DNA from: a virus
Taxonomy: Duplodnaviria > Heunggongvirae > Uroviricota > Caudoviricetes
Reading direction: 5' to 3' (one strand)
DNA length: 37,520 bases
IMG/VR virus record: IMGVR_UViG_2541047896_000017
A model generated the notes under the pieces. That model was not told where the DNA came from and searched no databases. It saw only the letters and a list, made by a program, of their open reading frames with translations. Positions 4,130 to 36,776 of this stretch are shown here, piece by piece. Every line of letters begins with the position of its first letter. The first letter of the stretch is position 1. The translations under genes were made by a program, and so were the position numbers.

Positions 4130-4344
4130 GCAGGAGAAGAATCACTCGCAGACATCACCGCACACACCTGAATTCCTCAGCAACGCTAAAGGCACTTATT
4201 CAAAGCGAGATCGGTGATTTCTTCGCGGGAGTTGGCTCACCAGGTGAACCAGAAACACCAGAAGCGATGCAGCGTGAGCTCATGATACGCATAGATAACA
4301 CTTTTGATTTCTTCTACAGCATGCACGGCATTAAACAGAAATGA
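4126..4344 (+). CDS. Hypothetical early protein
   Basis: 72 aa ORF, start overlaps upstream stop. Confidence 0.5.
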   Translation: MSRRRITRRHHRTHLNSSATLKALIQSEIGDFFAGVGSPGEPETPEAMQRELMIRIDNTFDFFYSMHGIKQK

Positions 4345-4452
4345 ACCTCAAGCCAGCAATAACTACTCGTAGAACGCCAATTTCTGTAACCGACCGCTTC
4401 TGAGTTTTTTGGCAGGAAGCCTTCGCACATCCTTAGTAGAGAGAATTGCAGC

Positions 4453-4842
4453 ATGATTGACGCTCATGACTTCACAAGATGGGTGCGCACACAGGACACC
4501 CGTCTGGCTCCCATTCTTCGGGGATTATTTGATCTCTACATTCGTGGTCGTGACAACAGAGCACGCACCACAAAACCGGAGAATGTGGATACCCTTTATT
4601 TCACAGTAGACGACTGCTACCGCGTGGACTTCACACCACACGGACTGGCGTTGCACTGCCTGACACCGCACGGCGAATCACTGCTGGCGTATTACGACTC
4701 CCCGGCCTCCGTATTTGCGGCAATGCTGGCGCATCGCACTGCTGGCGGGTGTGCCTCGCTGAGTGAATACACCGCTGAGTTTAACCGCCTTTCCGCCCTC
4801 TTCTCGCAGGAGTGGCAGCGCGTGACGGGATACCAGCCATGA
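4453..4842 (+). CDS. Hypothetical early protein, translationally coupled to A
   Basis: 129 aa ORF; its stop overlaps the A start (ATGA). Confidence 0.55.
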   Translation: MIDAHDFTRWVRTQDTRLAPILRGLFDLYIRGRDNRARTTKPENVDTLYFTVDDCYRVDFTPHGLALHCLTPHGESLLAYYDSPASVFAAMLAHRTAGGCASLSEYTAEFNRLSALFSQEWQRVTGYQP

Positions 4843-7679
4843 GTGAGTTTGCATGGAGCTGGAATGAACCACGGCCAGCCATTGATCCGGCCAGATTTAC
4901 GGAGCGCAGGCAGGAAACTGAAACCGACCTGCAACGCGCCATCCGTTACTACCTTGAGGCAGACAAAAAGGCCCAGGAAGAACAGGAAGCGAAAGAGGAA
5001 GCCTTTTTCGCACAATCCGCCATGGGTAAAAAACTCATGGCATCCCTTGAGGAAGCCGGACAGCGTGAAAAGCTGGCACAAAGCATCATCAGTAAGCGTC
5101 GGGCAACAGAACAAGACCCGGTGGCCCGTGCCTTTGCCACACTGAAGGTGCTTCCCGTTTATCTGCGAGAACCCCTGAGCCGCCACCTCTCGTTCCTGCG
5201 CAAGAAGCAGGAAGCCGATCGTCAGAAAGGCAAAAAGAGCTGGCAGGCCGAACGCTACGCGCGCGGAAACCTGCGCAAAATATTCGAACGTCTGGAGCGC
5301 ACCGACAGCCGCTGGCTGACACAGGGGTATCGCTCCCTTGCCGGACGCGAACGCCTGGACGATTTGCTTTACCTGCCGCAGCTCAACAAACACCAGATAC
5401 AGACGCTGGCCACCATGACGGCGGCGATGTTCAGCAGCACCTTCGAAAAACTCTGCGATGGCTTTGGCGCGACCGATGGTGAGCTGACCATGGATGTAAC
5501 GCTGAAGGCGTATCAGATGCTGGCCCGCATGGCGTTACACCTGCACGCCATGCCTCCACATTATGACGCACTGACAACAGATAGAGATCGGAGGAACGAA
5601 CCGGACACGGAGCTGCTGCCAGGCGCAATCCTTCGCCTGACCTGTGCTGAATGGTGGAAACGCAAACTGTGGCTGTTACGTTGCGAGTGGAGAGAAGAAC
5701 AACTCCGCGCCGCCTGTCTGGTTTCCAGAAAAACATCGCCCTATCTGAGCCAGGACGCGTTAAGCGAGTTTCGCGCACAGCGCGAGAAAACACGCGATTT
5801 CCTGAAAAGTTTCATGCTGGAAAACGAAGACGGGTTCACGATTGATCTCGAGACAGTGTATTACGCGGGAGTAAGTAACCCGGTTCACCGTAAGGCAGAA
5901 ATGATGGCCACCATGAAGGGGCTGGAACTTCTGGCCGAGGCCCGTGGCGACAAAGCGGTGTTTCTGACTGTCACCTGCCCATCAAAATACCACGCCACAA
6001 CAGAGAACGGTCATCCGAATCCCAAATGGAACGGGGCCACCATGCGCGACTCCAGCGATTACCTGGTTAACACGTTTTTTGCGGCGGTCCGCAAAAAACT
6101 GAACCGCGACGGTCTGCGCTGGTATGGCATCCGCACGGTGGAGCCTCACCATGACGGCACCGTGCACTGGCATATGATGGTCTTTGCTCATCCGGAAGAA
6201 ATCGACAGCATCGTGGCCATCACCCGCGATATTGCCATTCAGGAAGACCGCCACGAGCTGGGCAATGATATTACTCCGCGCTTTAAGGTGGAGTATGTCG
6301 ACGGCTTAAAAGGCACACCAACCAGCTATATCGCGACCTACATCGGAAAAAACCTGGACAGCCGCGCCGTGGATGGCATCGACCCGAAAACGGGCAAACC
6401 ACGCGTTGACCACGAAACCGGAAAATCAATGGCCGAGAGCGTGGAGCGCGCCATCGGCTGGGCGCGCCTTCACCGGGTCCGCCAGTTCCAGTTCTTTGGC
6501 ATCCCCTCCCGTCAGGTGTGGCGTGAACTGCGCCGCCTTGCCAGCCAGATGGCACGCAACCCGGAAGGCCCGCAACGGCTGAAGGATGACGCAATGGATG
6601 CGGTACTCGCTGCCGCTGATGCCGGGTGTTTTGCCTCCTACATTGAAAAACAGGGTGGCGTACTTGTTCCACGCAAGGACTACCTGATTCGCACCGCCTA
6701 CGACCTCGCAGATGAGCTGAACGATTACGGCGAACAGAGCGTACAGATTTACGGGATCTGGTCACCACTCATCGGGGAATCCTCCCGTGTGTGCACGCAC
6801 CCAGATAACTGGAAGCTGGTAAGACGTAAACCGGAAGCGGAAGACAGCACCCGCGAAAATGGTTTTGACCTTCAGGGCGGCCCTGCCGCCCCTTGGACTC
6901 GTGGCAATAACTGTCCCCGTGTACAGGAAACGGACAACAACGGGACAGAACAGCCGGAAGAACGGCCAGCACCGCGGCCGCAGCTTCCTGACGGCGTTGA
7001 CGTGAATGAATGGATGCGCTCACTGAAACGGCACGAACGCCGGGCGCTGATGCATTCGCTGCGTGACAAACAGGCAAAAAACAGCAGTGATGAAATGCAG
7101 AACTGGACACAGAGCCGCAAACAGCCACGGCCTTTGCCTGATAACCACGAGTTACTCGCTAAAGAATGGCGGGAGTCTGCTGAATCTCTCGGCCTGCATA
7201 TCGGTGAACAGCAGATGCAGCACCTGTTACGGGGCGGCAGTCTGTACGTTGACGGCAGCATCATTGCACCGCAGGGATTTGAAATTGTACGCAAACCAGA
7301 TACCCGCCCGGACAGCCGAATCACGCAACTCTGGCAGCGCCTGAGCCGTAATCACGGCGTAAGCAGCACGGAGATCCGCCATAACCCGGTCGCCAGCTAT
7401 CTGGAACAGCTGGGGGCATCAGACCCCGAAGCCGCCGCACACCTGGCATCCACACTTCAGCAGGACCAGAACACCATGAAAACCCCCGTTACCGTGCTTT
7501 CTGACATGCTGCGCGCCATCCGTGACGCAGAGCACGCACAGAGAATCAGTGAAACCACTGAACGCGCCCACCGCAAAGCAGACCTGCTGCGGGGTAGCCT
7601 GACCAGTGGAAACAAAAAACAGACAGAAACGGGACTCACAAATCCCGTAAATGAGCAAAAAACGTGCCGCGATATATGA
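4839..7679 (+). CDS. A: Rolling-circle replication initiator endonuclease, P2 A-like, with long C-terminal extension
   Basis: Contains TVEPHHDGTVHWHMMVF (HUH-like) and YIATYIGKN (paired tyrosines), matching recalled P2 A motifs; about 946 aa versus about 760 in P2. Confidence 0.85.
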   Translation: MSEFAWSWNEPRPAIDPARFTERRQETETDLQRAIRYYLEADKKAQEEQEAKEEAFFAQSAMGKKLMASLEEAGQREKLAQSIISKRRATEQDPVARAFATLKVLPVYLREPLSRHLSFLRKKQEADRQKGKKSWQAERYARGNLRKIFERLERTDSRWLTQGYRSLAGRERLDDLLYLPQLNKHQIQTLATMTAAMFSSTFEKLCDGFGATDGELTMDVTLKAYQMLARMALHLHAMPPHYDALTTDRDRRNEPDTELLPGAILRLTCAEWWKRKLWLLRCEWREEQLRAACLVSRKTSPYLSQDALSEFRAQREKTRDFLKSFMLENEDGFTIDLETVYYAGVSNPVHRKAEMMATMKGLELLAEARGDKAVFLTVTCPSKYHATTENGHPNPKWNGATMRDSSDYLVNTFFAAVRKKLNRDGLRWYGIRTVEPHHDGTVHWHMMVFAHPEEIDSIVAITRDIAIQEDRHELGNDITPRFKVEYVDGLKGTPTSYIATYIGKNLDSRAVDGIDPKTGKPRVDHETGKSMAESVERAIGWARLHRVRQFQFFGIPSRQVWRELRRLASQMARNPEGPQRLKDDAMDAVLAAADAGCFASYIEKQGGVLVPRKDYLIRTAYDLADELNDYGEQSVQIYGIWSPLIGESSRVCTHPDNWKLVRRKPEAEDSTRENGFDLQGGPAAPWTRGNNCPRVQETDNNGTEQPEERPAPRPQLPDGVDVNEWMRSLKRHERRALMHSLRDKQAKNSSDEMQNWTQSRKQPRPLPDNHELLAKEWRESAESLGLHIGEQQMQHLLRGGSLYVDGSIIAPQGFEIVRKPDTRPDSRITQLWQRLSRNHGVSSTEIRHNPVASYLEQLGASDPEAAAHLASTLQQDQNTMKTPVTVLSDMLRAIRDAEHAQRISETTERAHRKADLLRGSLTSGNKKQTETGLTNPVNEQKTCRDI

Positions 7680-7755: not shown

Positions 7756-8715
7756 ATGAAAATTTGTATCGACGACGGCTCCACCAACATCAAGCTGGCA
7801 TGGACTGAGAACGGCGAACGCCGCAACGCCATCAGCCCGAACAGCTTCAAGTCGGAATGGTCTGCGCCGTTCGGTGGCACGCAGCCCGCGAACTACATGC
7901 TTGATGGCGTGCGCTATGGTTTTGATCCGGTCAGCGATCGCTTTGTCCAGACGACCGACACGCAATACCAGTACAGCGATGTGAATATAATTGCCATTCA
8001 TCACGCGCTGGTCAAATCAGGCATCACACCACAGGAAGTGGATGTGGTTGTCACCCTGCCACTAAGCGAGTATTTCGATACAAACGCACAGCCGGACATG
8101 GCCAACATCAACCGCAAAAAAGCGAACGTCATGCGCCCGGTGGAGTACCAGAACGGCGAAGCATTCACTATCCGTAACGTACGGGTTATGCCTGAATCCA
8201 TTCCGGCTGGCTTTAAGGCACTGGCTGACATGAGTCCGTTTGAATCCCTGCTGATTGTGGATTTGGGCGGAACCACGCTGGATGTGGCAAAGGTTCAGGG
8301 GCAACTGGCAGGTATCAGCCAGGTGTTTTGCGATCCACACGTGGGCGTTTCTCTGATGGCCGATGCCGTACTGTCGGTGATGGCCACTAACGGTATGCGC
8401 ACCAGTCACCACATCGCCAATACCATTATCGAACATCGCCATGATGAAGCCTGGCTGCGCCAGCACATCCACAATGACGCGCATTACGCCAGCCTGATGG
8501 CGGTAATTCGTGAAAAGGAAGAAACACTGAAACAACGCGTGATCCGCGCGCTGGCGGGTTTTTCGGGTTACGGGCGGGTGATGGTTGTCGGTGGAGGGGC
8601 GGAGATTGTGGCACCCGCTATCCGCGAAGCCTGCGGAGTTAATGCGACTTTCATCGCGGACGGGGTGCCACAGTTTGCTCTGGTTAATGGGCTGTACGCA
8701 ATGGACAAGGAGTAA
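7756..8715 (+). CDS. parM: Actin-like segregation ATPase, ParM/StbA family
   Basis: 319 aa; N-terminus MKICIDDGSTNIKLAW and motifs VMPESIPAGF, LLIVDLGGTTLD, VMVVGGGAE closely resemble recalled plasmid R1 ParM. Confidence 0.8.
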   Translation: MKICIDDGSTNIKLAWTENGERRNAISPNSFKSEWSAPFGGTQPANYMLDGVRYGFDPVSDRFVQTTDTQYQYSDVNIIAIHHALVKSGITPQEVDVVVTLPLSEYFDTNAQPDMANINRKKANVMRPVEYQNGEAFTIRNVRVMPESIPAGFKALADMSPFESLLIVDLGGTTLDVAKVQGQLAGISQVFCDPHVGVSLMADAVLSVMATNGMRTSHHIANTIIEHRHDEAWLRQHIHNDAHYASLMAVIREKEETLKQRVIRALAGFSGYGRVMVVGGGAEIVAPAIREACGVNATFIADGVPQFALVNGLYAMDKE

Positions 8716-9689: not shown

Positions 9690-10175
9690 CCTCAAACCAG
9701 GGCGATAATCGCACATCGCCCTGCTGCACAATAGTGCACAAATTTGCACAATTTTTTTGAACGAATTTTTGCCCTTCCAGCCCGCGTGGCGGCTGGATCC
9801 GTCAAGGATCCGTGCGTGCACAAAAAAACGCGCTTTTTCTGCGCGCAGGTGACGGGGGAACAGCCCGCGTTTCAGGGGGTAAATAGCGTTCCCTTAACGA
9901 TGTCGCAGCGACACGACAGAATGGCCGTATTTCTCACGCTGAGCGTGAAAAATACGTGAGGGATTCTGATTTGATGGGGTGAAAGGTAAGGCCGTCAAAA
10001 TCGCACTGAGGCGGCGAGAACATGCAGTCAACGCGGTGGGATTGCGTAAGAGTCTGACCGTCGATGGTGGCGATAAACTGGAAGGCGTCGTGAAATTATC
10101 TGACTGATACAGGAGCTGGAGAGTCGGGGCATAAATTTTTTATGCCCCGGCGAAGCAGCAGACAAGCGAAGCGCG
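9690..10175. other. Non-coding region expected to contain the cos packaging site
   Basis: In P2, cos lies adjacent to the 3' end of Q; region has GTGCACAA repeats, GGATCC palindromes and a 22-nt palindrome at 10126-10147. Exact cos not identified. Confidence 0.4.
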
Positions 10176-21391: not shown

Positions 21392-24049
21392 ATGAGCACG
21401 AAATTTAAAACCGTTATCACTACTGCCGGAGCCGCGAAGCTGGCAGCCGCCACTGTCCCCGGCGGGAAAAAAGTAACTCTGTCTGCAATGGCCGTGGGTG
21501 ACGGTAATGGCAAATTGCCGGTGCCGGATGCCGGTCAGACGAAACTGGTGCATGAGGTCTGGCGTCACGCTCTGAATAAAGTCAGCGTGGATAACAAGAA
21601 TAAAAACTATATCGTGGCTGAACTGGTTGTACCGCCAGAAGTGGGCGGCTTCTGGATGCGTGAGCTGGGTCTGTATGACGATGCCGGAACACTGATTGCG
21701 GTCGCTAACATGGCGGAAAGCTATAAACCTGAACTCGCTGAAGGCTCCGGGCGCGCGCAGACCTGCCGCATGGTTATTATTGTCAGCAACGTGGCGTCCG
21801 TTGAGCTGAGTATTGATGCCAGCACAGTGATGGCGACGCAGGATTACGTCGATGACAAAATCGCAGAGCATGAGCAATCCCGCCGCCATCCTGACGCCAC
21901 GCTGACAGAAAAAGGTTTTACTCAGTTAAGTAGCGCAACAAACAGCACCAGTGAAGAGCTGGCGGCAACGCCAAAGGCAGTAAAAGCAGCCTATGACAAT
22001 GCTGAAAAACGTATGCAGAAAGACCAGAACGGTGACGATATTCCAGATAAGGGCGCTTTTCTGGACAATGTTGGCGTTACCAGCCTGACGTTTATGAAAA
22101 ACAATGGCGAAATGCCGCTTGATGCTGACTTGAATACATTTGGTCCCGTTAAGGCTTATCTTGGCATCTGGTCTAAAGCAACATCCACCAACGCAACACT
22201 GGAGAAAAATTTCCCGGAAGATAATGCTGTCGGTGTGCTTGAGGTTTTTGCAGCTGGCAATTTTGCAGGCACGCAACGTTTTATCACGAGAGACGGCAAT
22301 GTATACATGCGTAAACTCGCCAATAAGTGGAATGGCACTGATGGTCCGTGGGGCGTATGGCGTCACACTCAATCAGCTACCCGCCCTTTGAGTACGACTA
22401 TAGACCTGAATACGCTTGGAGCCGCTGAGCATCTTGGTTTATGGCGTAACAGTAGCTCGGCTATAGCTTCATATGAACGCAATTATCCAGAGGAAGGCGG
22501 CTTTGCTCAGGGGACGCTTGAGATCCTCGAAGGCGGGAATTATGGAAGAACGCAACGTTATACCACTCGTCGTGGGAATATGTACGTTCGCTGCCTTGCG
22601 GCAAGCTGGGATGCATCAAATCCGCAGTGGGAACCGTGGTTAAGAGTCGGTCATCAGTCAGAGAGCCGTTATTACGAAGGTGATTTGAATGTTCTAACCG
22701 ACCCCGGTATTTACAGTGTTACAGGAAAGGCGACAAACGGTCCGATGCTGGACGCTGCTGGGGCGACATTGCTTGGGATACTGGAAGTAATCAGGCGTTT
22801 TGATGGTGTATCTGTCTGGCAGCGTTACACAACCACAGGAAAATCAGAAACCACACAGGGGCGCACTTTTGAGCGCGTCTACGCCGGGAGCACATGGACC
22901 GAATGGCGAGAAGTGTATAACTCCTTTTCGTTGCCCCTGAATATGGGGATCGGTGGCGCAGTGGCAAAACTCACCAGCCTGGACTGGCAGACCTACGATT
23001 TTGTGCCGGGCAGTCTGATAACCGTTCGGCTTGATAACATGACCAATATTCCCGACGGTATGGACTGGGGCGTCATTGATGGCAACCTGATAAACATCGC
23101 TGTTGGTCCGAGTGATAATTCCGGTACGGGGCGCTCAATGCATGTATGGCGCAGCACTGTAAGTAAAGCGAATTACCGCTTTTTTATGGTTCGCATTTCA
23201 GGAAATCCGGGAAGCCGCACGATTACGACAAGACGTGTGCCAATTATCGACGAAGCTCAGACATGGGCGGCGAAACAGACATTCAGCGGTGGTCTTTCTG
23301 GCGAACTATCCGGCAATGCTGCTACAGCAACAAAGCTGAAAACGGCAAGGACAATTAACGGCGTAAAATTTGACGGCTCGGCAAATATTGAAGCGTTTCC
23401 GCCAGGTGTTCCGCTGCCGTGGCCATCAGATACTGTGCCGTCTGGTTACGCCCTGATGCAGGGACAGACTTTTGATAAATCTGCATACCCGAAACTTGCA
23501 GTCGCTTATCCGTCAGGCGTGATCCCGGATATGCGTGGCTGGACAATCAAGGGCAAACCCGCCAGTGGTCGGGCCGTATTGTCTCTGGAACAGGACGGCA
23601 TTAAATCGCACACCCACAGTGCCAGCGCATCCAGTACGGATTTGGGTACGAAAACCACATCGTCGTTTGATTACGGTACTAAATCAACGAATAACACAGG
23701 TGCACATACCCACAATGTATCTGGTACTGCAAATAGTGCTGGCGCACATACTCATACCGTTCCATTAAGGAGACCAAACAGTGGCGGTATGAATTTCGAC
23801 TGGCTGGATGGTGCATCAAGTGGCACGGTGGTGGGGAATGGAACTGTGCCTTCTTCTGGCGCACATACCCACTCAGTATCAGGTACCGCTACAAGTGCTG
23901 GGGCACATGCACACACTGTTGGTATTGGCGCTCATACGCACTCTGTTGCGATTGGTTCACATGGACACACCATCACCGTTAACGCTGCTGGTAACGCGGA
24001 AAACACCGTTAAAAACATCGCATTTAATTATATTGTGAGGCTTGCATAA
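21392..24049 (+). CDS. H: Tail fibre protein, P2 H-like, with internally triplicated domain and His-rich C-terminal repeats
   Basis: 885 aa; conserved N-terminus [20 protein letters not shown]...; three DLN(T/V)(F/L)-initiated repeats of about 85-90 aa; C-terminal GAHTH repeats. Confidence 0.85.
23698..23976. repeat. Imperfect direct repeats encoding GAHTH(S/N)VSGTA(T/N)SAGAH motifs
   Basis: Two copies of about 57 bp (near 23698 and 23857) plus shorter GAHTHxV units. Confidence 0.6.
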
Positions 24050-24666
24050 TGGCATTCAGAATGAGTGAACAATCACGTACTGTAAAAATTTATAACCTGC
24101 TGGCCGGAACTAATGAGTTTATTGGTGAAGGTGACGCATATATTCCACCTCATACAGGGCTGCCAGCCAATTCTACAGATATCGCCCCACCGGAAATTCC
24201 TGCTGGCTTTGTGGCAGTTTTTAACAGTGAAAATGAATCGTGGAATATTGTTGAAGACCATCGTGGTAAAACGGTCTATGACGTGGCATCGGGGGACGCG
24301 TTGTTTATTTCTGAACCCGGACCGCTACCAGAGAATGTCACCTGGTTGTCGCCAGCAGGGGAGTATCAGAAGTGGGACGGCGTATCCTGGGTGAAGGATG
24401 AGGAAGCAGAAAAACTGTTTCGGATACGGGAAGCGGAAGAGAAAAAGGCAAGGTTGATCCAGGAAGCAACAGATAACATCGCAATTCTGCAGGATGCAGT
24501 TAATCTTGAAATAGCAACAAACGAGGAAAATTCACAACTGGATTCCTGGAGAAAATACAGAGTATTAGTGAGTAGAATTGACACCAGTACAGCTCCGGAT
24601 ATCGTATGGCCAGAGCTGATGAATCAGGGTTATGTGCGGGAGGACGAGCAGATAACTTCAGACTGA
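24049..24666 (+). CDS. G: Tail fibre assembly chaperone, P2 G-like
   Basis: 205 aa immediately after H, start overlaps H stop. Confidence 0.75.
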
Positions 24667-25193
24667 AATTTAGTGATGAATGTTGAATCATCTGGAATAT
24701 CATGCAATACCAATGCATGAGCACCTATTGTGACATTGTTTCCTATACGCACTTTGCCACCAAGAATGGTGGCATTACAACCAATGGTCACATTATGTCC
24801 TATAACAATATCCATATCATTAAAATCACCACGCAGCCCAATAGTTACCCCTGGTTTTATTGAACAATTTTCACCGATTGTTACTTTGTGACCGATAACA
24901 ACACTGTTGAGATAAGAAACATCAAAGCCTTTCCCTATATTTACAGTTAAAGGGACTGTTACATTATATTTATCAAGAATGAAACGTTCTATTTTCCCCG
25001 CAATCTTCCGACAGTATCCGCCTTTATCAAAAAGGTATTTGGCTATGCGCCACCAAAATAAATAACGAACTCTTCTATGTTTTATTGCGCGAACAATTGC
25101 CTTTCGCCAGGAGAAAGGACGCTCGCTACCGATTACTTCATAGTGAATACAATCTTTAAGTTCATTAATATTCATATCTCTATTATTCAGCAT
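24630..25193 (-). CDS. Hexapeptide-repeat (left-handed beta-helix) acyl/acetyltransferase; moron
   Basis: Hexapeptide repeats [14 protein letters not shown] / [33 protein letters not shown]; region visibly AT-rich; convergent 3' overlap with G. Confidence 0.7.
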
Positions 25194-25363
25194 AAGATAA
25201 TCATGTGACCAATTATTGTAATAATTTTAATGGTATGTTTCTACTGGCTATCCAGCGTGTCTGATGTCCAGTAACAAATCGTTAACACTGGTGCAATCAA
25301 ATGGTGAGTGTTAAGACTGGCCACTTATTACCAGGTATGAGGGTATGAGTGGCCAGCATTAAA

Positions 25364-25858
25364 TCAGAACAGCCCTTTAACTGAACTGGCCGCGCTGTTA
25401 AGGGATGATGTCACTTTATCTTTGAAGCCGGACAGCATATCGCTGAACGATGAGGATTGCAGGCGCTCCCGCAAATCCTCATCACAGCGTTCAAGGGTCA
25501 GTGAAAATTCTATCTTTTTCGCCTTACCGTAGAGATCAAACTCGGAACGGGTCGTATTCGTTTCGGTCAGGACATACATGCCGTAAATCTGCCCGACGCC
25601 ATCAATAAGAGGCCAGGGGCGTCCTGTATACGCCTGCGTGGTCAGCAGCGACAGCGACACTTCGCCACCTGTAATTTCAGGATAAAGCACACCAGAAAGA
25701 ACGATGCGATCATCACCTGCACCGATATACTGCCAGCTTGCTGAACGGTTAACGCGTTCATTTTTCACATGCCGCCAGCTTTTGTTTTGCTGTAACTGCT
25801 GATGCGGCAGCGTGCGCAGCTCAAAAACAAACATGCCGTAGATCATCATCATGGCCAT
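25364..25858 (-). CDS. U: Tail protein, P2 U-like
   Basis: 164 aa; SWRH...DDRIVLSGVLYPEITGG...WPLIDG resembles recalled P2 U. Confidence 0.85.
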   Translation of the reverse strand: MAMMMIYGMFVFELRTLPHQQLQQNKSWRHVKNERVNRSASWQYIGAGDDRIVLSGVLYPEITGGEVSLSLLTTQAYTGRPWPLIDGVGQIYGMYVLTETNTTRSEFDLYGKAKKIEFSLTLERCDEDLRERLQSSSFSDMLSGFKDKVTSSLNSAASSVKGLF

Positions 25859-33010: not shown

Positions 33011-34205
<1,195 letters not shown>

Positions 34206-36408
34206 CTAATACTTGAGGATGCAACGAATCATTAGCCCCCCTGTTAATTACAGGTAGGTATGCCCATTCAATCTTTACTAAGTCGTCATCTGAAACAGTG
34301 TTATCATTTTGAATATAATTCACAAGTTCATTAAATGAGTGAATATCAAACCGCTCAATATTTTCTGTGGTTCTAATTGATTGCAATAGAGCAAGCACAA
34401 CCTTACTGCTATCAACTGAATTATCGATATGCAAAATTTTAGATAAACAATCTATTGCCATCAAGGGACGGTCTACTTTAATCAAGCAGTCTATAGCAAA
34501 ATAAATTTCTTCCGTTGAATCACAGCTGTATGCATTAACAAGAGTATTTTTCCAATACTCGAAAGGAAAATCATCAAATGAAGCGTTTAATGCATCCCAT
34601 GTTTCTTTTTTAAACGGTAACAAAAGAAAAAAAGCAATCTTTTCTTGAGCACTCCAGTCATTAATAACTGTCAACACCCATGATTTTCCTTCTCTGTAGT
34701 TTTTAGCCTGTACATAACCAGAAGCAAGAGAATTTTCCTTTTTAATATCACTAACAATAAGTTTTTTCAGTATATCTAAAGGAATTTCTAGATCTTCTGC
34801 GACCAGGCTACTACCAACAAACTCAGGCCTTTCAATAGATAGAGAGAATTCTAAGACTCCATCAATACCATTAATAGCATATATTTCGCATATTGATTGC
34901 CCTCGTTCTTTTGTCAACCTTTCTTCTTGGTCCCGCCAGTTTCCATTTTCATCAAATAGGAAGTAATTGTTTTGTGCAAAAAGTCGCTTGCTATAAAGCA
35001 TAGGATCTTCGGGCTTCAAGACTGTAGAAACATCTTTGATTTTTTCATTTTGTTCTGGTTGCATTGCCCAATAAGCACCTGAGAATCTTTTGTTTTTGTT
35101 ATAAACTTCTAAACATTTTTCCCACACCGCTAACTTCAATTCAGCACTATCTGTTTTTTTAGAAAAATCATACAATAGTTTAATTGCATCATCGAATTTA
35201 AATGGCGCTAAACTACCAATATTTTCAACTAAATCAACAAGTCTTAATGATGATTTACTTGCCAATTCAATTGTTAATTGAGTGTATATTTCAATCTGAG
35301 TACGGCACTCATCACCCGATGGCCTTTTATTAAAACCGTTAGGAATAAAGTTTCTAAAAGTTGGAATATGTGTGCCAGATGTTACTTGCGTGTTGTTGGG
35401 TAGCAACTGAACTAAAACACGCCATGCTGTATCGGGCCACTCCCTTGCCAATGCGTTGAAAGCAGCAATACGTCTATCTATATCAGCTGTAGTATGAGGA
35501 AGCCATGGTAACAATATGTTGATTATCGAGTTAAGTGGCCTGTTAGCCCAATTGCCACCAGGATCATGGCTATCCAGCTCCCCTAATATTACTAAAGAGC
35601 GAGATAAATAGTTAGGCGCCCAAGCTAATCCTTCAATAGCCCATAGCAGTCCTGTCATATAATTCCGACCTGAAATTCCACCGATACCTTCCTGTGCAAA
35701 AAGTGAATCAAATGGCTTGTCTTGGTGAGATGCAGCATTTTCCACTTCGTCGATAAAACAGTCAGGAGCACTTTCCGCAAGCATAACTTGAATATCTTGC
35801 GTACTAGCCCATAATTGCCAGCTAGAAGCCGAAAAAACCTCTTTAACCACACTTGAGGCGCAATATTGCCCTTTATATTTTGAGCAATTAGTAAGTAACT
35901 CTTGCTTTGTTGCAACTAATGCCAACCCTTCGGATAGTCCTTTCCTTATTAATCGGCTGTGTGGTAAAACCTTCCCATAAATTACTGCTGCATAACGCTC
36001 TTCAGGTGCCAGTTCAAATTGTGGGTCGATAGTTTTAAAAACGGATACAACAGTCGTCCGAAACAAATCCAAATGATCATCGAATAATCTTGACGATACC
36101 GTTTGAAATGTTTGTATTCTATCTTTAAAACTCCAAGAACCTCTCTCATGAATCAAAGGACTATCTTGCATCCCTTCAATTATTCTTAATTTTCGAATCC
36201 AACTGTCATATGACTCACCAATAAGGCTTGTAATTATATCAATATCACCATTATTTTTTTCATCCCAGCAACCGACTAAAACAGCAATCGCTAACTCAGT
36301 CGCATAATCAACATTATCACTATTGTATACAATTAAGTTACCAGCAACATTATGGCCTGGTCCGGTATGATTTTGACTAATTGAACTGCAGCTATGAATG
36401 TTATCCAT
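34206..36408 (-). pseudogene. N-terminal part (about 735 codons) of large AT-rich cargo gene, truncated by IS5
   Basis: ORF-track 743 aa ORF whose last 7 codons plus stop come from IS5; start ATG 36408 (RBS gagg) or GTG 36414. Confidence 0.75.
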
Positions 36409-36413
36409 AGACA

Positions 36414-36776
36414 CTACCTCGTAATTTTATTTCCACCAATATTATCACCAGTGCCACTATGGTTTTGAATAATGACAGTTGCTGCATGAGGTTTTATAGA
36501 CGAGAGTATTTTTTGAATTTCACTACTATCCAATAGTTTTCTTTCAATTGCTATTTCACTCATTTCATCGTTCAAAGACAGTTTTTCAAGCTCTTTAGCT
36601 AAAGCAGGGGCTACAGCCTCATCAACAACCCAATTTTTTAACTTTTCTTTTATTGAAGTTGCAGTAATCGAAACATGATGTTTAAGCATGTCATAAACTA
36701 TGCCAGAAAGTATCGCCGAAGATAAAAAATCCATAACAATTTCCTTTAACGTAAGATATTTACTATCCAGATACAT
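36414..36776 (-). CDS. Small protein (120 aa) tightly coupled upstream of the large cargo gene; unknown function
   Basis: Stop TAG overlaps/abuts the large gene start; AT-rich; C-terminal QNHSGTGDNIGGN motif. Confidence 0.6.
   Translation of the reverse strand: MYLDSKYLTLKEIVMDFLSSAILSGIVYDMLKHHVSITATSIKEKLKNWVVDEAVAPALAKELEKLSLNDEMSEIAIERKLLDSSEIQKILSSIKPHAATVIIQNHSGTGDNIGGNKITR

Follow-up and report, generated by a model that had tools for sequence, protein, structure and literature searches.

The window analysed here is a stretch of 37,520 nucleotides (IMG/VR virus record IMGVR_UViG_2541047896_000017, Caudoviricetes). It is a P2-family prophage of E. coli, of the P88/Xuanwuvirus type, the genes of which include an integrase, replication protein A, portal, terminase, capsid, the baseplate proteins V-W-J-I, the tail fibre H, and the tail fibre assembly protein Tfa (G). 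Directly after tfa, and on the opposite strand, lies a small gene, called here the moron gene, which encodes a predicted hexapeptide-repeat protein of the left-handed beta-helix (LbH) superfamily. The 3' ends of the two genes overlap by 37 base pairs (bp). In the window, as in P88, the FI-FII-E-T-U tail module is on the minus strand; the moron gene therefore shares the strand of gpU, opposite to that of H-G, and lies 188 bp downstream of gpU. The initial annotation of this locus had described the gene as standing directly after G on the opposite strand, which is exact, and as occupying the position of Z/fun in P2. The latter holds with respect to G, since fun(Z) is found on the opposite strand directly after this gene in P2, but the other neighbour is gpU and not FI, owing to the inverted module.

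The moron gene is a real, selected gene and not a chance open reading frame (ORF). The ORF called initially (24630..25193, minus strand, 187 residues) is present, and its product matches Pfam Hexapep over two stretches (48.6 bits for a cutoff of 27) and, from end to end, the phage family phrog_2154, labelled 'unknown function' (1e-78). Homology searches return hundreds of homologues, and the copies evolve under purifying selection (see below). The start at 25193 does not stand: this upstream ATG is destroyed in one group of otherwise conserved copies (TTA-TAC for TTATGC), which retains the second ATG and the purine-rich stretch ahead of it, and RefSeq/PGAP also starts at the second ATG. The shorter coding sequence (CDS) of Table 1 is therefore adopted. 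Residue positions are numbered throughout on the 187-residue ORF, and subtracting 6 gives the 181-residue numbering. As had been noticed initially, the gene is more AT-rich than its neighbours, with a GC content of 37.5% (GC3 of 29%) versus 46% for tfa, 50% for gpU, and 51.5% for the whole window.

From the comparison of phage genomes, the position following G/tfa is a variable cargo slot, holding fun(Z) in P2, an invertible alternative fibre-tip/tfa pair with a DNA invertase in P88 (3822-5970 of phage P88 versus 24630-25363 of the window), neaT in prophage phi-b0847, and the moron gene here. Closely related P88-type phages lack the moron gene. The window phage has no invertase in the slot, unlike P88, its closest backbone.

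Table 1. Features of the moron locus; positions are those of the window, and residue numbers in brackets are those of the 181-residue CDS.
Feature	Position	Strand	Remarks
LbH acyltransferase-like moron CDS	24630..25175	-	181 aa; Pfam, PHROG, PGAP, homologues, dN/dS
Codon TAT, Tyr94 (Tyr88)	24912..24914	-	Column of CysE catalytic His158
Codon ACA, Thr79 (Thr73)	24957..24959	-	Column of CysE Asp143
Codon CCA, Pro114 (Pro108)	24852..24854	-	Gln in 91% of His-bearing relatives
Sigma-70-like promoter, TAGAAA-N17-TACAAT	25215..25243	-	Predicted; conserved across copies
Two stable hairpins at/after the gpU stop	25365-25397 and 25311-25362	-	z = -3.66
Exchanged block	21906..25454		93.6% with 47-kb RepA phage-plasmids and phage vB_EcoM-613R2
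Tail fibre gene H	21392..24049	+	Tail-collar fibre N-terminus, fibre repeats, collar domain; exchanged cassette from 21906 on
Tail fibre assembly gene G/tfa	24049..24666	+	Caudo_TAP 1.6e-39; converges on the moron gene
gpU tail gene	25364..25858	-	Upstream neighbour, same strand; last gene of the inverted FI-FII-E-T-U late operon

Profile comparison identifies the moron protein as a predicted LbH hexapeptide-repeat protein of the serine acetyltransferase (SAT)-like branch, that of CysE, EpsC, and WcaB. The best matches to curated models all fall far below their cutoffs: EpsC (NF041874, 79.1 bits for a cutoff of 150), CysE (TIGR01172, 69.1 for 210.65), and WcaB (TIGR04016, 58.5-61 for 195-196); the SAT model PRK11132 gives 43.9 bits for a cutoff of 397. 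The best PDB matches are SATs (1e-11 to 1e-8), and identity to CysE is 30% over 128 residues. The core in common with CysE, EpsC, and WcaB consists of a helical segment with a '(Y/W)R(I/L)A' motif followed by the LbH domain. Neither SATase_N (PF06426) nor Acyl_transf_3 (PF01757) is matched in the Pfam scan of the moron protein, whereas a genuine CysE found beside a homologue in Proteus scores 128.5 bits for SATase_N. The homologues form a tight Enterobacterales clade with an invariant N-terminal motif of its own (C15, E19, F27, W29, F46-W47-W48-R49), beyond which scores fall steeply to generic SAT-like proteins of about 185 residues; an exhaustive search of 1.84 billion representatives yields only 4 matches at E <= 1e-30. 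The families put forward initially (WcaF-like, maltose/galactoside acetyltransferase, or Vat-like) do not fit, with 25-32 bits for cutoffs of 192-347: WcaF gives 25.5 bits (cutoff 192), maltose O-acetyltransferase (Maa) 30.5 (314), galactoside O-acetyltransferase (LacA) 32 (347), and Vat 25.4 (300), all four through the repeat region only. CatB (25.3 for 350) and WbbJ (39.9 for 243) also fall short of their cutoffs; for Maa, LacA, Vat, and CatB, the match is confined to a repeat stretch of 40-90 residues. In databases, the gene is already present under inconsistent and partly wrong names, many records reading 'serine acetyltransferase'.

The most distinctive feature of the protein lies in its presumed active site. 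The dyad region aligns without gaps between the window, the homologue of Quadragintavirus ev015 (KGLNIAHLNGIV), and CysE (GIMLDHATGIVV). Asp143, Asp157, His158, Arg192, and His193 of CysE (E. coli numbering), which we take to be the Asp143-His158 catalytic dyad and the serine-binding residues Asp157, Arg192, and His193, are aligned with Thr79, Ser93, Tyr94, Met127, and Asp128 of the moron protein. At the catalytic column, 93 of the 113 distinct clade sequences have a His and the other 20, all belonging to the sub-lineage of the window (the "Tyr lineage"), have a Tyr. The independent, exhaustive sample gives His in 119/124 representatives and Tyr in 3/124. At the column of the acidic partner, Asp or Glu is found in 93/93 His-bearing sequences, Thr in the 20 Tyr sequences, and Lys or Val in their metagenomic relatives. 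Outside the window lineage, one representative of the exhaustive set has a Tyr at the catalytic column and a Gln at the acidic position, and another has an Asn; in these two, the catalytic His may have been lost independently. The "acetyltransferase" of the initial description is hence right as to the hexapeptide repeats and doubtful as to activity: acyl transfer is not assured, because the catalytic His and its acidic partner are both replaced.

The scaffold around these residues is conserved. Among 92 non-redundant relatives with the His, 33 positions reach a conservation of 85% or more. Of these, 30 are maintained in the Tyr lineage (10 non-redundant sequences), one shows a conservative I/V change, and exactly two are lost (H94Y and Q114P), the latter about one beta-helix turn past Tyr94. 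The Gly/Ile/Val pattern of the coenzyme A (CoA)-binding beta-helix and the N-terminal F/W/R motif are among the features retained. The ratio of nonsynonymous to synonymous divergence (dN/dS, omega) is 0.06-0.10 among E. coli copies. In deeper pairs of the Tyr lineage, pS reaches 0.76-0.92 (saturated) for a pN of 0.16-0.34, and the Tyr is invariant. Recent pseudogenisation by AT-biased drift (CAT to TAT) is thereby excluded, with an invariant Tyr, saturated synonymous sites, and omega of about 0.06-0.16. The pattern is that of a presumed active site remodelled on an intact scaffold, not of decay. The metagenomic relatives of the Tyr lineage (P0008, P0009, P0013) are carried by contigs of 1-2 kb, one of which has an IS3-type transposase fragment as neighbour.

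The gene behaves as a moron with its own predicted promoter. The sigma-70-like element of Table 1 has a perfect TATAAT as -10 box in most other copies. The upstream flank of the copies is of three kinds, unrelated to one another: the end of gpU, P1-like plasmid sequence, and one other. In all three, homology begins about 75 nucleotides ahead of the start codon, at TAGAAA-N17-TA(C/T)AAT. Past gpU and ahead of this element, the minus strand is predicted to fold into two stable hairpins (-33 kcal/mol, z = -3.7). The first, at the gpU stop codon, resembles a terminator, with a T-run behind its stem, and the pair probably shields the late FI..U operon from the moron gene. An 8-bp tandem duplication (GGTATGAG x2) is present in the loop of the second hairpin (25334-25349) and absent from CP088577.1 (L003) and from locus L127. 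The moron CDS itself harbors no tandem repeat. No terminator was found downstream of the moron gene, and its transcript would therefore run antisense into tfa. The promoter-like element travelling with the gene and standing apart from the phage operons, the deviating base composition, and the changing contents of the slot across phages bear out the initial view of a low-GC moron in a variable slot after G.

The moron gene is found in 184 of 5426 complete E. coli genomes (about 3%), with up to three copies per genome, at about 158 chromosomal places and 59 on plasmids. In PLSDB, 58 plasmids carry the gene, 55 of them non-mobilizable; these carriers are 47-kb RepA phage-plasmids and phage-plasmids of about 95-115 kb with tail genes. 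Strains carrying the gene include enterotoxigenic E. coli (ETEC), O121:H19, and O80 strains. The limits of the exchanged unit follow from a BLAST comparison of the region with the loci fetched: it takes in the fibre shaft and tip and tfa, then the moron gene with its promoter, the hairpins, and some 90 bp from the 3' end of gpU. A sub-block of it (23417-25263) is 94.8% identical to the phage-plasmids of about 100 kb. In the 47-kb elements and in vB_EcoM-613R2, the gpU 3' end and the hairpins are stranded between the moron gene and repA (CP088577.1 ~9727-9817, corresponding to 25364-25454 of the window). This fragment left in the recipients points to a transfer from a P88-like context and suggests that the cassette was captured from a P88-like prophage. 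The cassette of fibre tip, tfa, and moron gene is found in three phage backbones. In a few E. coli genomes (NZ_LR883050.1, NZ_CM180508.1, NZ_CM180511.1), an IS1 splits the gene, and the pieces are annotated 'DapH/DapD/GlmU-related' and 'WcaB domain'; the gene would thus be dispensable in some hosts.

The linkage to tail-fibre genes extends beyond E. coli. A further 160 loci were fetched and scored mechanically for a convergent Caudo_TAP gene, giving 152 scored copies. Such a gene is present at -36 to +50 bp in 72 of them, representing 40 distinct proteins and 9 clusters at 60% identity, and in another five copies the convergent neighbour is itself a tail-fibre-like repeat protein. Among the homologues converging on tfa are those of Hafnia phage yong2 (52% identity), Citrobacter phiNP (38%), and the P1-like phage-plasmid JL22 (36%). 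In JL22 (ON018986.2, 1773-9140), the cin-invertible fibre segment contains the homologue, with a convergent tfa gene on either side; inversion of this segment would therefore flip the orientation of the homologue relative to the late fibre operon. With respect to the fibre and tfa genes, the moron gene is always convergent and never co-oriented. The receptor-binding tail fibre, noted initially as an adjacent gene, is thus part of a fibre-tip/tfa cassette with which the moron gene travels, and convergence with tfa recurs in the 9 lineages. Between the window and the copy on a plasmid of about 100 kb (L004), dS is five times higher in the moron gene than in the overlapping tfa (0.31 versus 0.06), which indicates different histories or a recombination breakpoint near the overlap. 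Moreover, similarity of the window tfa to those of lambdoid phages and JL22 (83-88% at the nucleotide level) ends at about 24446, so that the C-terminal third of Tfa varies together with the acetyltransferase allele and not with the rest of tfa.

Other homologues are found in other settings. In Quadragintavirus ev015 and ev040, and in others, they adjoin the integrase at the prophage end, a classic site for conversion genes. Chromosomal homologues exist in nine Proteus species, in the order gpsA, cysE, homologue, SpoU-methylase, and ugd, and in Rahnella, between a POT permease and a GGDEF protein; both lie outside polysaccharide operons. The Proteus homologue (about 39% identity, dyad intact) directly follows a genuine cysE with a spacing of 0-3 bp (positions ~4150-5560 of loci L015-L018, L022, L027, L031, L032, and L066). 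Finally, a Buttiauxella metagenome-assembled genome (MAG; L047) carries two paralogues of the clade in tandem on the same strand, 66 bp apart (4387-4935 and 5001-5564).

Taken together, we tentatively favor the view that the gene is a self-promoted lysogenic-conversion moron, encoding an LbH acyltransferase-like modifier of an envelope glycan with non-canonical chemistry. The anatomy of the gene, along with the precedents of neaT, NeuO, and the putative acetyltransferases reported to be common in Klebsiella prophages, makes a lysogen-expressed gene altering an envelope glycan the best reading, and the integrase-adjacent homologues are in line with it. The product would be a soluble, probably trimeric, SAT-like beta-helix protein, expressed in the lysogen from its own sigma-70 promoter, with the late tail operon insulated by the hairpins following gpU. 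Its gene is passed on, and swapped from phage to phage, in a single cassette that also holds the tail-fibre tip and tfa. Being small and soluble, it would act on cytoplasmic precursors, most likely a nucleotide-sugar or lipid-linked precursor of a conserved envelope glycan. Incoming phages would then meet a changed surface, resulting in superinfection exclusion or in masking of the receptor for the co-transferred fibre type. As the dyad has become Thr/Tyr and the nearby Gln a Pro, the chemistry should differ from canonical O-acetyl transfer: it may involve an acceptor needing no general base, such as an amine, or Tyr-assisted catalysis.

A number of observations weigh against this interpretation. 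The catalytic His and its acidic partner are both absent from the window lineage, and 'all crystallised LbH members share a catalytic histidine' according to a 2011 statement (PMC3046976). The predicted structure is of little help: the AlphaFold2 monomer (27-sequence alignment) forms short beta-strands across residues 98-150 and has a pLDDT of 76, of 61-79 in the beta-helix, which is too weak to place the changed residues, and Foldseek against the PDB gives no significant match (best E = 0.2, to SATs). As for the target, near-identical copies are carried by O139, O6, O166, O121, and O80 strains, at least five O-serogroups although read from strain names, a weak basis, and 'two serine acetyltransferase genes' are reported in all 60 Proteus O-serotypes, the homologue being on a separate transcript (PMC5560731). 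An O-antigen-specific target is for these reasons unlikely, and a conserved structure is a more plausible target than an O-type-specific sugar. The link with the fibre is also loose in places: in JL22 and phiNP, the fibre tip and the N-terminal two-thirds of tfa are 74-92% identical to the window at the nucleotide level for an acetyltransferase only 36-38% identical, so that allele and fibre type are not strictly coupled. Adjacency to tfa could mean no more than that the site tolerates insertions and that the gene hitch-hikes on the phage module most prone to recombination. Lastly, no experimental study of any family member was found in the literature, and the JL22 paper, the only one discussing a homologue, leaves its presence and role unexplained ('still unknown').

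One alternative reading is possible if doubtful. In it, the Tyr lineage would be an old, selected LbH protein devoid of the Asp/Glu-His mechanism, either a binding pseudoenzyme (sequestering a glycan precursor or poisoning a host enzyme) or an undescribed Tyr-based or base-independent acyltransferase, co-opted by temperate phages as a fibre-linked exclusion or conversion factor. A pseudoenzyme or binding protein proper, which would keep a precursor or acetyl-CoA sequestered or would inhibit an enzyme or transporter of the host, e.g. through mixed trimers with a host LbH enzyme, seems rather improbable. It would account for the joint loss of the dyad residues and Q114 from a retained scaffold, for a Tyr that has stayed invariant in an old lineage in which synonymous sites are saturated and pN is low, and for the rarity of Tyr at this column. 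However, the conserved CoA-binding pattern and F/W/R motif fit cofactor and substrate binding by a catalyst equally well, and the E. coli chromosome offers no close paralogue as a target for poisoning, CysE being only about 30% identical. Furthermore, QdtC and WlbB are LbH sugar N-acetyltransferases working without a catalytic base. It is unlikely, in turn, that the protein serves in anti-phage defence or in another non-surface function, acylating a small molecule, a nucleotide signal, a xenobiotic, or a phage component within the cell. None of the PADLOC-DB v2 families matches it at E <= 1, no partner gene is conserved alongside, and its best relatives are polysaccharide and serine acetyltransferases instead of Vat and CatB. 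This idea draws on the weak, partial matches to these two LbH xenobiotic acetyltransferases, on the slot being a known exclusion-gene site (P2 fun(Z) blocks T5), on the abortive-infection gene adjoining the ev040 homologue and the HicAB pair adjoining that of phiNP, and on the location of the Proteus and Rahnella homologues outside polysaccharide operons.

The two remaining explanations are far less probable. Were the protein a factor for the tail fibre of the phage itself or for its assembly, modifying for instance the fibre or Tfa, its place next to tfa or a fibre gene in many lineages would be explained, as well as the position of the window gene downstream of gpU on the late-operon strand and that of the JL22 homologue inside the invertible fibre segment. 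We consider this very unlikely, since the gene always runs towards the fibre and tfa genes, hairpins set it apart from gpU, and it has a sigma-70-type promoter of its own; many homologues, beside an integrase or on a chromosome, have no fibre genes in their vicinity, and the closely related P88-type phages manage without it. A genuine serine O-acetyltransferase, as an auxiliary gene of cysteine biosynthesis, is scarcely credible in spite of the label borne by many records and of the SATs heading the PDB and NCBIfam matches, and is rejected on cutoffs, domain content, and active-site residues. The TIGR01172 and PRK11132 scores are a fraction of the thresholds, SATase_N is absent, unlike in the real Proteus CysE with which a homologue coexists in tandem, and all five CysE columns considered above have changed. 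In addition, the CysE C-terminus is an Ile-ended tail that binds CysK, whereas the moron protein ends in ...SSSRT.

Elsewhere in the window, two further loci with cargo were observed. Downstream of gpD, a 743-residue ORF within 34183-36776 (minus strand), with no match in Pfam or PADLOC, abuts a 120-residue HetE-N domain protein (1.7e-38), and an IS5-type transposase lies next to them at 33157-34137; at this end of the prophage, the ORF and the HetE-N protein may form a cargo or defence pair not yet characterised. The other P2 moron position, which separates replication gene A from the portal gene, holds a gene for a full-length actin-like segregation protein, ParM (7756-8715, plus strand), followed by an ORF annotated as a partition/stability protein in the RefSeq twin record. 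Plasmid-partition cargo is unusual in an integrated P2-like prophage.

The moron gene is carried by prophages and by phage-plasmids, two or three copies being present in some cases, and the label it routinely bears, 'serine acetyltransferase', is wrong. Should it modify a conserved envelope glycan, it would represent an unrecognised determinant of lysogenic conversion and phage resistance spreading together with receptor-binding modules, which would bear on the prediction of phage host range and on phage therapy. In addition, the replacement of both dyad residues in a conserved LbH protein is a clean natural experiment on the need for the catalytic His in the superfamily.

Among known systems, the nearest in genomic setting is neaT of the CFT073 prophage phi-b0847, an acyltransferase conversion gene in exactly this slot, which has its own promoter, is expressed in the lysogen, and alters aggregation and the interaction with phagocytes (PMC3573123). 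Like the moron gene, neaT lies at the P2-like 'moron position 2' after G, opposite to the flanking tail genes, is AT-rich (30% GC), encodes a predicted acyltransferase, and is found at moron sites of unrelated phages (PMC3573123). The proteins differ in fold, NeaT being an integral-membrane Acyl_transf_3 protein (PF01757) and the moron protein a predicted soluble LbH protein, and virulence and aggregation phenotypes are described for neaT and none for the moron gene. P2 Fun(Z) has the same slot and orientation directly after G, and is also a non-essential lysogenic-conversion or exclusion gene; it is longer (1587 bp), blocks T5 according to the P2 record annotation, and has no sequence similarity to the moron gene (E = 5).

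In terms of protein type, the polysialic-acid O-acetyltransferase NeuO of prophage CUS-3 is comparable, as a prophage-encoded, soluble, trimeric LbH acetyltransferase acting on a surface polysaccharide that is a phage receptor (PMC3046976). NeuO is reported to enhance resistance to phage and to neutrophil killing (PMC13001214). NeuO belongs, however, to the MAT/GAT/OatWY-like branch, has a catalytic His and a Trp, is carried by a P22-like phage, and is phase-variable through a 5' heptanucleotide variable number tandem repeat (VNTR), whereas the moron gene has no such repeat and a Tyr at the catalytic column. The phage-borne glycan acetylases Sf6 Oac, the GtrC family, and D3 Oac bring about serotype conversion and superinfection exclusion (PMC3630932, PMC7067206, PMC11436027). 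These seroconverting enzymes are often integrase-adjacent, as are some moron homologues, but are membrane acyltransferases operating on the periplasmic side, whereas the small soluble moron protein would need cytoplasmic precursors.

CysE, EpsC, and WcaB are the best sequence relatives and have the same core. The moron protein differs in its scores, far below their curated cutoffs, in having no SATase_N domain, and in the replacement of the Asp-His dyad and of the serine-binding residues, and the N-terminal motif sets the moron clade apart. QdtC and WlbB, from another LbH branch, are acetyltransferases without catalytic His and a precedent for activity if the acceptor is an amine; we know of no Tyr at the equivalent position in either. 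The moron gene belongs to a known kind of element, the acyltransferase moron in the P2 cargo slot. With regard to these systems, what appears to be new is that the Asp/Glu-His dyad and Q114 were lost together in an old lineage kept by selection, that a cassette links the gene to the fibre tip and tfa in several phage backbones, and that a predicted promoter travels with the gene.

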